A DNA stretch of 64,000 nt, taken from NCBI GenBank assembly GCA_964016885.1, contig OZ024745.1, positions 12,958,001 through 13,022,000 of the forward strand. The letters run 5' to 3'. This document shows, one piece after another, positions 9,073 to 29,290 of the stretch. A program made the translations under genes and the position numbers. A model generated the notes under the pieces. It ran no database searches, was not told the DNA's origin, and saw nothing but the letters and a program-made list of their open reading frames with translations. The stretch comes from Eledone cirrhosa (taxonomy: Eukaryota). Numbering within the stretch: position 1 is the first letter of the stretch; each line of letters starts with the position of its first letter.

Positions 9073-9097
9073 CTGAAAACATATTAAAACTGATTTC

Positions 9098-10590
9098 AAT
9101 TCTGTTTATTCTACCAATACTGCCTAGTCTGTTTATACTGACAATTCTGTTTATTCTACCAATACTGCCTAGTCTGTTTATACTGACAATTCTGTTTATT
9201 CTACCAATACTGCCTAGTCTGTTTATACTGACAATTCTGTTTATTCTACCAATACTGCCTAGCCTGCCTATACTGACAATTCTGTTTATTCTACCAATAC
9301 TGCCTAGTCTGCCTATACTGCCAATTCTGTTTATTCTACCAATACTGACTAGTCTACCTATACTGACAATTCTGTTTATTCTACCAATACTGCCTAGCCT
9401 GCCTATACTGACAATTCTGTTTATTCTACCAATACTGCCTAGTCCGTTTATACTGACAATTATGTTTATTCTACCAATACTGCCTAGTCTGTTTATACTG
9501 GCAATTCTGTTTATTCTACCAATACTGCCTAGCCTGCCTATACTGACAATTCTGTTTATTCTACCAATACTGCCTAGTCTGCCTATACTGACAATTCTGT
9601 TTATTCTACCAATACTGCCTAGCCTGCCTATACTGACAATTCTGTTTATTCTACCAATACTGCCTAGTCTGCCTATACTGACAATTCTGTTTATTCTACC
9701 AATACTGCCTAGCCTGCCTATACTGACTATTCTGTTTATTCTACCTCTACAGCTTAGTCTACCTATACTGACAATTCTGTTTATTCTACCTATACAGCTT
9801 AGTCTACCTATACTGCCAATTCTGTTTATTCTACCTAATACTGCCTTGTCTACCTATACTGATAATTCTGTTTATTCTACCAATACTGCCTAGCCTGCCT
9901 ATAATGACTATTCTGTTTATTCTACCTATACAGCTTAGTCTACCTATACTGACAATTCTGTTTATTCTACCTATACAGCTTAGTCTACCTATACTGACAA
10001 TTCTGTTTATTCTACCTATACAGCTTAGTCTACCTATACTGCCAATTCTGTTTATTCTAGCAATAATGCCTTGTCTACCTATACTGATAATTCTGTTTAT
10101 TCTACCAATACTGCCTAGCCTGCCTATACTGACAATTGTGTTTATTCTACCAATACTGCCTAGTCTACCTATACTGACAATTCTGTTTATTCTACCTATA
10201 CTGCCTAGTCTGCCTACACTGACAATTCTGTTTATTCTACCAATACTGCCTAGCCTGCCTATACTGACAATTCTGTTTATTCTACCAATACTGCCTAGTC
10301 TACCTATACTGACAATTCTGTTTATTCTACCAATACTGCCTAGTCTGCCAATACTGACAATTCTGTTTATTCTACCTATACTGCCTAGCCTGCCTATACT
10401 GATAATTCTGTTTATTCTACCAATACTGGCTAGCCTGCCTATACTGCCAATTCTGTTTATTCTACCAATACTGCCTAGCCTGCCTATACTGACAATTCTG
10501 TTTATTCTACCAATACTGCCTAGTCTGCCTATACTGACAATTCTGTTTATTCTACCAATACTGCCTAGTCTGTTTATACTGACAATACTA
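9098..10590. repeat. 45-bp minisatellite (~33 copies)
   Basis: Unit CAATTCTGTTTATTCTACCAATACTGCCTAGTCTGCCTATACTGA. Confidence 0.95.
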
Positions 10591-15177: not shown

Positions 15178-16118
15178 TGGCACCTCTACGAGTCCACAGG
15201 GAGCTACAGAGCAATAATACATGTAAGAGTTTCACGGTATCTCTGATATTCCCACGGTCAACAAAAGTTGACATTCCTGGCCTACAAAAAGCAACAAGGT
15301 TCTTGCTTACCCTGAATCTAACTCCAGTACCCGCATGTGCGAACCACGCGTTGTGGAATGGTTTCTCTAGGGTGTCTCCCTCACCATCCCCCGGTGCAAT
15401 GTTTTCTCTACCCTGTCTACCAGACCACGAGGCCGACTTAAACATTATTTTATATTATACAATCTCCCCATTGCCATAGGTGAGGTCACCCTAGCTCCAT
15501 ATTTTCATGCTGTGTAACTGAGGCTCCCCTGTCCCATAATGTGCCACCCTCGCTTCAAAGTACCATACCTTCTTACACTATCTCCCCATTACCATAGGGG
15601 TGTTGCCCTAGCTCCATATTTCCATTCTGTGTCACTGAGGCTCCCAACACTAAGTCACAACAGTGTGGCACCCTAGCTCCACAGTGTCATAGTGCGGCAC
15701 CCTAGCTCCACAGTGCCATAGTGCGGCATCCTAGCTTCAAAGTGCCATATTTTACCACCCTATGTTCCCAGTGCCATACTGTCCCTAAACAGGTTGTTAA
15801 GGTGATGACGATGCTGTTGATGGTGATGATGATGTTGATGGTGATGATGATGATTATGATGATGAGATTGACGAAGATGATGACAATTATTTACTCACCA
15901 GTTCATTCTCTTTTGGAGACACATACACTGACAGAGACATAGGTTTTTACACCAGCCCCTTCCTTCTTTTTACACTCATACATTCACACATACACACACT
16001 TACATTCATACATTCGCACACACACGTGCACACACTTACACACATATTTACACACACACACACACATTTAGACACATTTACACACACAGACACACTTACA
16101 CACACACGGACTAACCCA

Positions 16119-19100
16119 GAGACAGACACAGGGACTGACACAGGGACAGACACAGGGACAGACACAGGGACAGACACAGGGACAGACACAGGGACAGACA
16201 CAGGGACAGACACAGAGACTGACACAGGGACAGACACAGGGACAGACACAGGGACAGACACAGGGACTGACACAGGGACAGACACTGGGACTGACACAGG
16301 GACAGACACAGGGACTGACACAGGGACTGACACAGGGACAGACACAGCGACAGACACACGGACTGACACAGAGTCTGACACAGGGACAGACGCAGGGACA
16401 GACACAGGGTCTGACACAGGGACTGACACAGGGACAGACACAGGGACAGACACAGGGTCTGAAACAGGGACAGACACAGGGACTGACACAGGGACAGACA
16501 CAGGGACAGACACAGGGACTGACACAGGGACAGACACAAGGACAGCCACAGGGACAGACACAGGGACTGACACAGGGACAGACACAGGGACAGCCACAGG
16601 GACAGACACAGGGTCTGACACAGGGACAGACACAGGGACTGACACAGGGACAGACACAGCGACAGACACAGGGACTGACACAGGGACAGACACAGGGACA
16701 GACACAGGGACTGACACAGGGACAGACACAGCGACAGACACAGGGACTGACACAGGGTCTGACACAGGGTTAAAAACAGGTACAGACACAGGGACTGACA
16801 CAGGGACAGACACAGGGACTGACACAGGGACAGACACAGGGAACAGACATAGGGACTGACACAGGGACTGACACAGGGTCTGACACAGGGACAGACACAG
16901 GGACTGACACAGGGACAGACACAGGGACTGACACAGGAACTGACACAGGGAGAGACACAGGGACTGACACAGGGTCTGACACAGGGACAGACACAGGGAG
17001 AGACACAGGGACTGACACAGGGTCTGACACAGGGACAGACACAGGGACAGACACAGGGACAGACACAGGGACAGACACAGGGACTGACACAGGGACTGAC
17101 ACAGGGAGAGACACAGGGACTGACACAGGGTCTGACACAGGGACAGACACAGGGAGAGACACAGGGACTGACACAGGGTCTGACACAGGGACAGACACAG
17201 GGACAGACACAGGGACAGACACAGGGTCTGACACAGACACAGACACAGGGACTGACACAGGGTCTGACACAGGGACAGACACAGGGAGAGACACAGGGAC
17301 TGACACAGGGTCTGACACAGGGACAGCCACAGGGACAGATACAGGGACAGACACAGAGACAGACACAGGGACAGACACAGGGACTGACACAGGGACAGAC
17401 ACAGGGACTGACACAGGGTCTGACACAGGGACAGACACAGGGAGAGACACAGGGACTGACACAGGGTCTGACACAGGGACAGACGCAGGGACAGACACAG
17501 GGACAGACACAGGGTCTGACACAGGGACAGACACAGGGACTGACACAGGGACAGACACAGGGACTGACACAGGGTCTGACACAGGGATAGACACAGGGAG
17601 AGATACAGGGACTGACACAGGGTCTGACACAGGGACAGCCACAGGGACAGACACAGGGACAGACACAGAGACAGACACAGGGACAGACACAGGGACTGAC
17701 ACAGGGACAGACACAGCGACAGACACAGGGACTAACACAGGGACAGACACAGGGACAGACACAGGGACTGACACAGGGACTGACACAGGGACTGACACAG
17801 GGAGAGACACAGGGACTGACACAGGGACTGACACAGGGAGAGACACAGGGACTGACACAGGGACAGACACAGGGACAGACACAGGGACAGACACAGGGTC
17901 TGACACAGGGTCTGACACAGGGACAGACACAGGGAGAGACACAGGGACTGACACAGGGACAGACACAGGGACAGACACAGGGTTTGACACAGGGTCAGAC
18001 ACAGGGAGAGACACAGGGACAGACACAGGGACTGACACAGGGACTGACACAGGGAACAGACACAGGGTCTGACACAGGGAGAGACACAGGGACAGACACA
18101 GGGACAGACACAGGGTCTGACACAGGGACTGACACAGGGAACAGACATAGGCACTGACACAGGGACTGACACAGGGAGAGACACAGGGACTGACACAGGG
18201 ACAGACACAGGGACAGACACAGGGAATGACACAGGGACAGACACAGCGACAGACACAGGGACTGACACAGGGTCTGACACAGGGTCTGACACAGGGACAG
18301 ACACAGGGAGAGACACAGGGACTGACACAGGGACAGACACAGGGACAGACACAGGGTTTGACACAGGGTCAGACACAGGGAGAGACACAGGGACAGACAC
18401 AGGGACTGACACAGGGACTGACACAGGGAACAGACACAGGGTCTGACACAAGGAGAGACACAGGGACAGACACAGGGACAGACACAGGGTCTGACACAGG
18501 GACTGACACAGGGAACAGACATAGGCACTGACACAGGGACTGACACAGGGAGAGACACAGGGACTGACACAGGGACAGACACAGGGACAGACACAGGGAA
18601 TGACACAGGGACAGACACAGCGACAGACACAGGGACTGACACAGGGACTGACACAGGGTTAGAAACAGGGACTGACACAGGGACTGACACAGGGAGAGAC
18701 ACAGGGAGAGACACAGGGACTGACACAGGGAGAGACACAGAGTCTGACACAGGGACTGACACAGGGAGAGACACAGGGACTGACACAGGGTCTGACACAG
18801 GGACAGACACAGGGACAGACACAGGGTCTGACACAGGGTCTGACACAGGAACTGACACAGGGACAGACACAGACACAGACACAGGGAGAGACACAGGGAC
18901 TGACACAGGGAACAGACACAGGGACAGACACAGGTAGAGACACAGGGACAGACATAGGGACAGACAGAGGGACAGACACAGGGTCTGACACAGGGAGAGT
19001 CACAGGGACAGACACAGGTAGAGACACAGGGACTGACAGAGGGACAGACACAGGGACAGACACAGGGTCTGACACAGGGAGAGTCACAGGGACAAACACA

Positions 19101-19725
19101 GGGACTGACACAGGGACTGACACAGGGAACAGACATAGGGACTGACACAGGGACTGACACAGGGAGAGACACAGGGTCTGACACAGGGACTGACACAGGG
19201 ACAGACACAGGGACAGACACAGGGTCTGACACAGGGAGAGACACAGGGACAGACACAGGTAGAGACACAGGGACAGACAGAGGGACAGACACAGGGACAG
19301 ACACAGGGTCTGACACAGGGAGAGTCACAGGGACAAACACAGGGACTGACACAGGGACTGACACAGGGACGGACACAGGGAACAGACATAGGGACTGACA
19401 CAGGGACTGACACTGGGAGAGACACAGGGTCTGACACAGGGACTGACACAGGGACAGACACAGGGTCTGACACAGGGACAGACACAGGGACAGACACAGG
19501 GACAGACACAGGGTCTGACACAGGGACTGACACAGGGACAGACACAGGGACAGACACAGGGACAGACACAGGGACTGACACAGGGACAGACACAGGGACT
19601 GACACAGGGACAGACACAGGGACTGACACAGGGACTGACACAGGGACAGACACAGGGACAGACACAGGGACAGACACAGGGACTGACACAGGGACAGACA
19701 CAGGGACTGACACAGGGTCAGACAC
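16119..19725. repeat. 12-bp minisatellite, ~3.6 kb, with higher-order block duplications
   Basis: Unit GACACAGGGA(CA/CT) with variants GGTCT and GGAGA; source of the SVPV/DTGT ORFs. Confidence 0.97.
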
Positions 19726-19754: not shown

Positions 19755-20794
19755 TTGAAAAATAAACTTGTCCCTGACCTACTTTAATGTCCCTGACATA
19801 CTTTAATAGATCTTACGCAAAAAAGACTCTAAACTTATTTGAATGTCTTTGAGAGCATTATTATGCCATTAATTTGAAGCAAAGTTTTAACATCAATTAC
19901 TGCCATAGTATTTGAAGCGAGGCTACAAATGATGTCAATCGGTATAATTGGACAATTCTTTACGTCAAAAATGAAACAGTTTTCTTAGTGAAACTAAAGT
20001 TCTTGCTCGAAATATTGGAAACTCAAATGTATTTTCTAACAAGAGATAAAAGAAGATGGAACACGTGATAGAGAAGTGTATTCTACCAGCGAAGATTTAA
20101 TGTACCAGTATTGGACGCCATATTGTCATTTCAAATGTTTCAAGGTAATTCAATGCTGCAATGTTTGGAGTCATTTGGAAATATTCCGAAATAGGAATTG
20201 ATCAGATTCACCTCAATGTTAATCAATTGTGTGAAATATATAATATCGATATATCAATTGATATGAAAGATGAAATATTTTATTTTAAATCGATACACGA
20301 ATCAAATATTTTACCAACCTCAATTCCACCAATTGAATTATTAAATAAACTTACTGAGCTGTATCTTACTATTCCCAAATGTAATTCCAGCACTTGGAAT
20401 ATTCTTTACTGTCTAGAATTTACAGTTAAACAGACTGAAAGATATTGTAGTGCTTTAGCAGAATGGCCCGGCGTTGCTCGGGATTTGCTCTAGGGTTCTT
20501 ATATATTTGATATATATTTATCCTTCTCGAGTCTCGTGAAGTAAATACGTTTGTTTATATTTTGTTATTGTCTATGCAAAAATATCTGTACACGAATATA
20601 TAAATAACAGTACAGAGAAGTACGGAATACCTCGGCCTCGGGTTGGTGTCTACATTTTGTGCTTATAAAAAAAATTCGTCGTAGATTACCAGGGTTTTTT
20701 CCCGTTCGAAGAAAATCAATACTTTATCGCGAAATAAATACTTTTATTTATGTGTATGCAAAAATATCTGTAAACGAATATATAATTATATATA

Positions 20795-20862
<68 letters not shown>

Positions 20863-20883
20863 TATTTTTATAAATATATGTTA

Positions 20884-20919
<36 letters not shown>

Positions 20920-20985
20920 GAAGAGAGAAGAAACATTTAGATATAATTAGTAATAAAATGTATCATACCTAAACTGCTCCTAGAT

Positions 20986-21075
20986 TCCTCGACTACGTAG
21001 TTTCGTGGCATAAACAAAAACAATACATCATAAAGATATAGAGTCCTTGCGAGGTCTGCCGACTTATCAAGAGGA
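20986..21075 (-). ncRNA. Type I hammerhead ribozyme (U3-A8 variant), copy 1
   Basis: Exact reverse complement of 21850-21939. Confidence 0.75.
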
Positions 21076-21849
21076 TACCTCATTTTACTAGTCTCAAGAA
21101 CGCGTCTACACGACGTGAGAAAGAATCCCAAAAGGTGGAGGGGGAGATAGTCACGCGATATAACGGTCGAGAAACAGAGCTAAGCCTCTTATAACCCCGA
21201 AGAAAATACCACGGAGGCGGAGGGGGTATTTATATCGAAGCCGTAGAAGAGGTGGTGAAGGGGGCGAGAAGTATGAGTAATGGAAGCTTTCCAGCAGTCC
21301 CCACACTTCAAAGATTGCTCGACCAGAGGGAGTTATTAACAATATATTTAGAAACACACAGATACATGCGGACACACACATATACATGAATGCATCCGCA
21401 CCCAACCGTGAGTTAAGGGTGCCAACTTCACCGATGTTGCTCAATGAATGACTGGGACAGACCAATCCGGTTGAACTAGACTGAACCAGTATCAGAGTTA
21501 AAAATACATTATGAAGAGAGAAGAAACATTTAGATATAATTAGTATGTGTGTGTCCGCATGTATCTGTGTGTTTCTAAATATATTGTTAATAACTCCCTC
21601 TGGTCGAGCAATCTTTGAAGTGTGGGGACTGCTGGAAAGCTTCCATTACTCATACTTCTCCCTCCTTCACCACCTCTTCTACGGCTTCGATATAAATACC
21701 CCCTCCGCCTCCGTGGTATTTTCTTCGGGGTTATAAGAGGCTTAGCTCTGTTTCTCGACCGTTATATCGCGTGACTATCTCCCCCTCCGCCTTTTGGGAT
21801 TCTTTCTCACGTCGTGTAGACGCGTTCTTGAGACTAGTAAAATGAGGTA

Positions 21850-21939
21850 TCCTCTTGATAAGTCGGCAGACCTCGCAAGGACTCTATATCTTTATGATGT
21901 ATTGTTTTTGTTTATGCCACGAAACTACGTAGTCGAGGA
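21850..21939 (+). ncRNA. Type I hammerhead ribozyme (U3-A8 variant), copy 2
   Basis: Stem I TCCTC/GAGGA; core TTGATAA (21855-21861); stem II GT(C)GGCA/TGCCAC; GAAA (21921-21924); palindromic stem III CTACGTAG; GTC triplet with predicted cut after 21934. Confidence 0.75.
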
Positions 21940-22167
21940 ATCTAGGAGCAGTTTAGGTATGATACATTTTATTACTAATTATATCTAAATGTTTCTTCTC
22001 TCTTCATAATGTATTTTTAACTCTGATACTGGTTCAGTCTAGTTCAACCGGATTGGTCTGTCCCAGTCATTCATTGAGCAACATCGGTGAAATTGGCACC
22101 CTTAACTCACGGTTGGGTGCGGATGCATTCATGTATATGTGTGTGTCCGCATGTATCTGTGTGTTTC

Positions 22168-22221
<54 letters not shown>

Positions 22222-27744: not shown

Positions 27745-29290
27745 CATGATGATCGAGATCAGTGGTGCAGAAGCTTAGATCAGTGGTGCAGAAGCTGAGA
27801 TCAAATGTGTGATGGCTGAGATCAGTGGTACAGAAACTGAGATCAAATATGTGATGGTTGAGATCAGTGGTATAGAAATTAAGATCAAATGTGTGATGGT
27901 TGAGATCAGTGGTACAGAAACTAAGATCAGATGTGTGATGGTTGAGATCAGTGGTACAGAAACTGAGATCAGATGTGTGATGGCTGAGATCAGTGGTACA
28001 GAAACTGAGATCAAATGTGTGATGGCTGAGATCAGTGGTACAGAAACTAAGATCAGATGTGTGATCGCTGAGATCAGTGGTGCAGAAACTGAGATCAAAT
28101 GTGTGATGGCTGAGATCAGTGGTACAGAAACTAAGATCAGATGTGTGATGGCTGAGATCAGTGGTACAGAAACTAAGATCAGATGTGTGATGGTTGAGAT
28201 CAGTGGTACAGAAACTGAGATCAGATGTGTGATGGCTGAGATCAGTGGTACAGAAACTGAGATCAGATGTGTGATGGCTGAGATCAGTGGTACAGAAACT
28301 GAGATCAGATGTGTGATGGCTGAGATCAGTGGTACAGAAACTAAGATCAGATGTGTGATGGTTGAGATCAGTGGTACAAAAACTGAGATCAGATGTGTGA
28401 TGGCTGAGATCAGTGGTACAGAAACTAAGATCAAATGTGTGATGGTTGAGATCAGTGGTACAGAAACTGAGATCAGATGTGTGATGGCTGAGATCAGTGG
28501 TACAGAAACTGAGATCAAATGTGTGATGGCTGAGATCAGTGGTACAGAAACTAAGATCAGATGTGTGATCGCTGAGATCAGTGGTGCAGAAACTGAGATC
28601 AAATGTGTGATGGCTGAGATCATTGGTACAGAAACTAAGATCAGATGTGTGATCGCTGAGATCAGTGGTGCAGAAACTGAGATCAAATGTGTGATGGCTG
28701 AGATCAGTAGTACAGAAACTAAGATCAGATGTGTGATGGTTGAGATCAGTGGTACAAAAACTGAGATTAGATGTGTGATGGCTGAGATCAGTGGTACAGA
28801 AACTAAGATCAGATGTGTGATGGCTGAGATCAGTGGTACAAAAACTGAGATCAAATGTGTGATGGCTGAGATCAGTGGTACAAAAACTGAGATCAAATGT
28901 GTGATGGCTGAGATCAGTGGTACAAAAACTGAGATCAAATGTGTGATGGCTGAGATCAGTGGTACAGAAACTGAGATCAAATGTGTGATGGCTGAGATCA
29001 GTGGTACAGAAACTAAGATCAAATGTGTGATGGTTGAGATCAGTGGTACAGAAACTGAGATCAAATGTGCGATGGCTGAGATCAGTGGTACAGAAACTGA
29101 GATCAAATGTGTGATGGCTGAGATCAGTGGTACAGAAACTTAGATCAAATGTGTGATCGCTGAGATCAGTGGTACAGAAACTGAGATCAAATGTGTGATC
29201 ACTGAGATCAGTGGTACAGAAACTGAGATCAAATGTGTGATGGTTGAGATCAGTGGTACAGAAGCTGAGATCAGATCTGTGATGGTTGAA
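27745..29290. repeat. 42-bp minisatellite (~36 copies, two 21-bp GAGATCA sub-repeats)
   Basis: Unit GAGATCAGTGGTACAGAAACTGAGATCAAATGTGTGATGGCT. Confidence 0.97.

Follow-up and report, generated by a model that had tools for sequence, protein, structure and literature searches.

How did two copies of the same non-coding sequence, opposite in orientation and each slightly longer than one unit, come to stand head to head between (TA)n tracts? The question is raised by an insertion in a 64,000-nt stretch of Eledone cirrhosa DNA (contig OZ024745.1, positions 12,958,001 to 13,022,000), hereafter the window, whose positions are counted from 1. The repeated 593-nt unit is very probably a non-autonomous hammerhead element mobilised by Penelope-like elements (PLEs). 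The insertion itself is read here, with a probability of roughly 0.7, as a two-armed product for which a Neptune-type RT-endonuclease would have nicked both (TA)n strands and copied a monomer, predicted to be circular, from two fixed sites, each of them used for one strand.

Anatomy of the insertion

The features of the insertion are as follows, monomer numbering starting at the predicted cut.

20778..20914, no strand: left (TA)n target tract, interrupted
20911..21545, minus strand: arm A, monomer 39-593 then 1-80; 3' end at priming site A, (TA)n beyond
20986..21075, minus strand: arm A's type I hammerhead, with the cut predicted between 20991 and 20990
21544..21545, no strand: head-to-head junction, overlap of 2 nt (TA)
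21544..22176, plus strand: arm B, monomer 202-593 then 1-242; 3' end at priming site B, (TA)n beyond
21691-21698, plus strand: TATA-like motif
21699-21709 and 21781-21791, plus strand: two identical 11-nt C-rich boxes
21850..21939, plus strand: type I hammerhead of arm B, predicted cut after 21934
22171..22216, no strand: right (TA)n target tract

Self-comparison of the window confirmed the arrangement described in the original prediction. Copy 1 (20915-21545) has a 38-nt terminal repeat and copy 2 (21545-22176) a 40-nt one (41 nt when counted from 21544), copy 2 being the reverse complement of a circularly permuted 593-nt unit. Each arm consists of the unit plus about 40 nt and carries one type I hammerhead. 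The few differences, the lack of coding capacity and the (TA)n flanks noted earlier were likewise borne out: the copies differ by 3 substitutions and 1 indel, (TA)n lies on both sides, and a Pfam search of the frames of the element gave zero matches. The longest stop-to-stop frame has 134 aa within the unit and 164 aa at 21151-21645. A tblastn search of the window with a PLE protein found nothing, and the ORF with RT and GIY-YIG that marks an autonomous PLE was not found there.

The insertion is present four times on the contig at a spacing of 174-189 kb, in surroundings that are 97.5-99.3% identical; the region around it is thus itself repeated fourfold (L001-L004, G000:C5, 12.44-12.98 Mb). 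This points to one insertion event amplified by segmental duplication, and the four copies were counted as one. Since each arm has a single hammerhead, the window locus would be unable to serve as a monomer source. The TATA-like motif and the C-rich boxes (21691..21791, plus strand), the latter retained in a sister family described below, may form an internal promoter, as far as can be judged from the motifs.

Several other repeats were observed in the window. A tandem macro-repeat of about 8.8 kb, in roughly four copies of 95-99.8% identity, occupies 30683-64000, each copy containing two opposed arrays of 49-bp units together with 29-, 34- and 48-bp arrays. A 12-bp minisatellite of about 303 copies lies at 16086-19725, and there are further long minisatellites, of 45 bp at 9097-10586 and of 42 bp at 27773-29289. 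Just to the left of the target tract, a 47-nt repeat pair (20560-20606 and 20742-20788, 87% identical) probably belongs to another repeat.

The family and its arm ends

In the genome searched (3.0 Gb, chromosome-size contigs), an exact 18-mer spanning the predicted cut occurs 7,696 times, and its control 0 times. The large dispersed hammerhead retrozyme family with a variant core that had been anticipated is supported, and the case named as refuting it, a unit confined to a single locus, fails on this dispersal. The first 100 of the 7,696 matches represent 49 insertion sites; if that density holds, the family comprises roughly 3,800 insertions, related subfamilies included.

Two samples were read. 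The first consisted of the 30 best full-unit loci, reduced to 26 by dropping 3 duplicates and 1 shared locus, and is biased towards long arms. The second, consecutive sample consisted of 48 regions with all of the first 100 18-mer matches, on one chromosome, and its only bias is towards arms with an intact ribozyme junction. The insertions are built of non-coding units in head-to-tail tandem with a hammerhead motif in every unit. The 3' ends of 107 of the 115 arms lie at site A (80) or site B (~243; 242-248) and are followed by (TA)n, while the 5' ends are scattered across the unit. Tabulation of start and end points in these samples, which had been proposed genome-wide, yielded the expected multimers, which reach 4.9 units. 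The random permutations that had been expected were not obtained: the 3' ends sit at two fixed positions, and it is the 5' ends alone that vary. Because arm lengths at other loci range from 49 to 2907 nt, the 38- and 40-nt repeats of the window are not fixed features and are the overlap of arms slightly longer than one unit. The combination of 5' truncation, inverted 5' copy, optional tail and microsatellite target is that of Penelope-like insertions.

From arm length and start, two complete hammerheads lie within one arm in 19 of the 48 regions, which could be source loci. In five of 109 arms (L010, L011, L037, L157 and L163) the start falls at monomer 578-581, directly 5' of the palindromic stem III; these starts, singled out post hoc, possibly mark an RT pause or a joining hot spot.

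A sister family has a 580-590-nt unit, is older and 76% identical, and shares the hammerhead core and the two end sites. It was sampled from 1,829 first-look candidates as 30 loci (L112-L141), picked for an arm reaching site B and representing 26 insertions. Internal jumps were seen in several of its arms.

One site per arm

Head-to-head pairs combine site A with site B in 33 of 38 cases; A+A and B+B were each found 0 times, and the remaining 5 have an odd end. Single arms of the consecutive sample end at A (11), at B (12) or elsewhere (2). Under independent choice of site, the probability of 33 A+B pairs with no same-site pair would be 0.5^33 = 1e-10. Among 21 two-armed insertions of the sister family there were 17 A+B, 1 B+B, 1 ambiguous B+B and 2 odd combinations.

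At the junction, the two arms overlap by 0-7 nt in 30 of the 38 pairs. Fold-back on the first cDNA was rejected as a general source of inverted arms, being incompatible with 14 of the 33 A+B pairs, including that of the window (635/635). All pairs would be compatible with two cDNAs that were primed separately and then joined end to end. The consecutive sample shows a positive correlation between the lengths of paired arms (rho 0.50, n 22, permutation p 0.011), the length-selected one a negative correlation (rho -0.63, n 11); this is a hint only, as subfamily could confound it. Equal 5' positions in both arms (7/33, p 0.09) were not significant.

Hammerhead and RNA folding

The motif is composed of stem I (5 bp), the core UUGAUAA, stem II (57 nt, with a closing G-C), GAAA, stem III (a palindrome of 10 nt) and the GUC triplet, with U3-A8 in place of C3-G8 in the core. 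A hammerhead was not called in an Rfam search at E up to 10. The fold constrained to the hammerhead has -25.7 kcal/mol against a minimum of -26.8 (within 1.1 kcal/mol), and pairing of two ribozyme copies through stem III is predicted to gain 13.7 kcal/mol. The core is identical to that of the sister family at 42 of 43 positions, compared with 76.6% for the monomer overall (one monomer pair); the comparison of the hammerhead was also made over 12 copies of the sister family. The ribozyme is predicted to cleave itself, probably as dimers formed through the palindromic stem III. A hammerhead on the opposite strand near 20916-20967 was considered and ruled out, its stem I being unpaired.

Between six bases 5' of stem I (21843-21848, plus strand) and the internal loop of stem II (21870-21875) base pairs could form, a possible pseudoknot according to the model; the putative pairing is kept in the sister family, with no two-sided changes. 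The folded circular monomer is stable (z -5.5, 40 shuffles). Covariation did not support the whole-circle fold in comparison with the sister family, 34 of 65 changed pairs being kept against a null of 34.9 +/- 3.1, and a conserved whole-circle structure was dropped since pair retention is no better than the null. The unit is covered, together with its tandem joint, by contigs from four sequencing runs of unrecorded type; the joint also exists in DNA and is thus non-discriminating. A low-depth 621-nt contig (run X6) closes on itself, as a tandem array would also make it do.

A candidate Penelope-like partner

Autonomous PLEs co-occur with the 593-nt element in the genome, where 10,596 GIY-YIG candidates were found, 150 scored and 50 loci read. 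Frames of 938 aa (RT and GIY-YIG both recognised by Pfam) and 1,096 aa (RT recognised by Pfam) show RT, a Cys-rich linker and, at the C terminus, GIY-YIG, a domain order and linker that would fit the Neptune or Nematis type. At L091:1-9901 (G000:C1:145867500-145877400), the 938-aa RT-GIY-YIG frame is flanked by two U3-A8 hammerheads 4,979 nt apart, apparently a full-length PLE.

The core UUGANAA occurs together with a palindromic stem III in PLE families A, C, F and G, whose copies run out in (TA)n. The youngest of the four is family A (median 98.5%, 9 copies). Its arms end at +150 in 29 of 30 loci, which were picked for a long tail, and adjacent inverted arms end at +82 in 7 of 7 loci, an eighth inverted arm lying 950 nt off; longer second arms extend beyond the flank examined. 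The end motifs of family A resemble sites A and B and are of low complexity. In family F, both arms end at about one site in 2 loci; the one-site-per-arm rule is therefore not universal. Family A is only a candidate for the partner of the 593-nt element.

Nucleotide homology of the 593-nt unit to the 50 PLE loci, out of 10,596 candidates, was sought by blastn and nhmmer and found in none except one nested insertion. A first ribozyme-pattern search for a homologous PLE gave 1 match (control, 1), and a second gave 5, all deletion variants of the 593-nt family and no homologous PLE. At L086:2285-3264, a retrozyme copy was observed in a TA-rich tract directly downstream of a PLE endonuclease frame.

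The template and the alternative explanations

In the length set (arms of the consecutive sample at >=88% identity), 31 of 69 arms are longer than one unit and 9 of 69 are longer than two, up to a maximum of 2,907 nt. Beyond 300 nt, arm length fits an exponential, memoryless distribution (n 52, KS p 0.68). Copying round a circle or a multimer, as put forward in the original prediction, holds in so far as the template exceeded one unit; the two ~40-nt overlaps of the window are weak on their own, and it is other loci that argue for a circle.

Divergence and alleles were compared in arms of at least 93% identity and 90 nt. Divergence amounts to 0.40% for passes of the same arm, 0.26% for the two arms of an insertion and 2.23% for different insertions (nearest neighbour 0.6%). 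Of the private substitutions, i.e., those seen in one of about 70 sampled insertions, 95 are limited to one pass, 26 fill every pass that covers the site and 2 are partial; in L175, four private alleles are found in 7/7 or 8/8 passes across both arms. As private alleles fill all passes, new alleles would go through a monomer that is then re-multimerised, which rolling reverse transcription on a circle predicts. DNA-level expansion or conversion could mimic part of this pattern. At sites with shared alleles, 47 of 314 are discordant within an insertion, the arms of the window differ at a polymorphic site, and in L006:1401-2728 there is a change from one family haplotype to another inside a single arm, which points to a template switch or to a circle of two monomers. 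From these sequences, a single circular monomer copied by rolling reverse transcription is the likely template.

An alternative keeps the element and PLE twin priming and takes as template an uncleaved, linear, multimeric read-through RNA, the hammerhead being incidental and the arrays homogenised or extended as DNA. Tandem source arrays are indeed present, seamless junctions are equally compatible with uncleaved RNA, and passages in the literature report that hammerhead cleavage is dispensable for PLE insertion in vitro (PMC11167929) and that 1 of 9 Xenopus retrozyme dimers cleaves (bioRxiv 10.64898/2026.07.22.740005). However, linear copying only shortens arrays, and the lengths observed show no cap at unit boundaries; a monomer bottleneck is needed to place insertion-private alleles in all passes, as in L175, with almost no partial ones; and the core of the ribozyme is conserved far above the background. 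We therefore hold this alternative to be unlikely. A second possibility, that RT copied cleaved linear monomers by jumping from the 5' end of one to the 3' end of the next, would accommodate the haplotype switch within the L006 arm and the internal jumps in some arms of the sister family. Nevertheless, the cut site was crossed 152 times out of 152 without an indel, and only 2 of 109 5' ends lie at the cut, about 1 being expected by chance. These scar-free junctions largely refute jumping between monomers, which we consider highly improbable.

The unit could also be the pseudo-LTR of an unsampled coding PLE, with the arms as truncated ends of the autonomous element, the arrangement that had been envisaged as fixed-end LTRs on a coding body. 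The PLE survey covered a fraction of the GIY-YIG candidates, and retrozymes are described as related to pLTRs in a passage of bioRxiv 10.64898/2026.07.22.740005. Against this, unit runs into unit for up to 4.9 rounds in arms that abut (TA)n or their opposite arm, neither an RT or endonuclease frame nor any other attached coding body was seen in line with an arm at the loci examined, and the two ribozyme-pattern searches gave no other hammerhead with the same stem III; the chance of a pseudo-LTR is accordingly put as slight. A local template-switch duplication of DNA, or a satellite with no RNA stage, might be thought of because the window locus was amplified fourfold by segmental duplication. 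It is refuted by dispersal over many chromosomes with unrelated flanks and by the polarity of the ends, which are tied to the ribozyme strand in a pattern shared by coding PLEs, and retains next to no probability.

Proposed mechanism

For circle-templated copying from two sites, the following course is proposed. Loci with two complete hammerheads in tandem would be transcribed, the transcript would be cut, probably by ribozyme dimers through the palindromic stem III, and the monomer would be ligated into a circle. The PLE RT-endonuclease would nick both strands of (TA)n, and two RT molecules, likely a dimer, would begin at sites A and B. They would travel round the template by strand displacement with random drop-off, after which the two cDNA ends would be joined by microhomology; failure of one RT would give a single-arm insertion. 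More tentatively, and with somewhat less than even confidence, it may be that the dimeric RT-endonuclease of PLEs and retrozymes loads on one ribozyme-made circle, each subunit being fixed to its start site, and rolls off both cDNAs together. If this were true, it would account in a single step for tandem pseudo-LTRs, for an inverted arm and for a tail confined to one end.

Comparison with known systems

In L1 twin priming, two nicks prime two cDNAs and give an inversion with microhomology, the second site being variable and the arms non-overlapping. In the 593-nt element, by contrast, the second site is fixed and both arms may span the whole unit several times. Plant LTR retrozymes have a type III hammerhead in fixed LTRs, and assignment to them was ruled out by the type I topology and the absence of a fixed 5' end.

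The layout of PLEs, their one-sided tail and the (TA)n target were described by Craig et al. 2021 (PMC8557442) and Arkhipova et al. 2013 (PMC3846280). As in the EN+ PLEs of Neptune/Nematis type treated there, the element shows 5' truncation, partial tandems, an inverted 5' copy, an optional tail at one end, a hammerhead upstream of the 3' end and the (TA)n target; it differs from them in having no ORF, a tail of about 163 nt versus 30-40 and a repeat unit of 0.6 kb versus about 5 kb. In the corresponding passages of PMC8557442 and PMC11167929, two questions are treated as open: how PLEs come to form tandem and inverted copies that have a tail on one side, and what part the hammerheads play.

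For the Anolis Poseidon PLE in vitro, Frangieh et al. 2024 (PMC11167929) reported that RT starts at two internal sites and that both strands are extended, and predicted a dimer; mutation of the hammerhead left insertion in vitro unaffected, the main substrate being unprocessed RNA. In Poseidon, as here, the tail is defined by start sites that lie downstream of the hammerhead. In the passages concerned, however, the Poseidon start sites show no difference between strands and cleavage is unneeded, whereas in the present family the two arms of an insertion exclude a shared site and the template seems to have no end. The thousands of short insertions in this young family form a countable record of the start site of each arm, of scar-free passage through the cut site and of one haplotype per insertion, so that circle-templated twin priming could be put to the test in the PLE assay published for use in vitro.

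U3-A8 hammerheads were described in the Schistosoma Cercyon PLEs, for which circle-templated copying beyond one unit was proposed (Cervera and de la Pena 2014, PMC4209133). The covariation in the core and a palindromic stem III suited to dimers are shared with Cercyon; the longer stem III (10-nt palindrome), the long stem II and the non-coding multimeric unit are not.

In a literature search restricted to main texts, the 593-nt family and the strict one-site-per-arm rule were not found, and the family may have been named earlier; the class of the element, its size range and the U3-A8 core are already described. Animal non-LTR retrozymes are tandem hammerhead repeats that form circRNA and are probably moved by PLEs (Cervera and de la Pena 2020, PMC7229834), and published retrozymes measure 51-972 bp, show kinship to pLTRs and cleave as dimers in 1 of 9 Xenopus cases (Li, Clavereau and Pollet 2026, bioRxiv 10.64898/2026.07.22.740005). 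Fixed paired 3' ends and inverted arms are unreported in the passages of these two texts drawn on here. The present family departs from the animal retrozymes described in its U3-A8 core and its 57-nt stem II; pLTR homology was not found in the 50 PLE loci read, and its circle is a predicted one; its 593 nt lie within the range of 51-972 bp given by the bioRxiv paper and above the 150-450 bp of PMC7229834. In common with the retrozymes of both papers it has tandem units that are non-coding and each bear a single type I hammerhead, a copy number in the thousands and PLEs alongside, and it is from these papers that the model of circle-templated reverse transcription originates.
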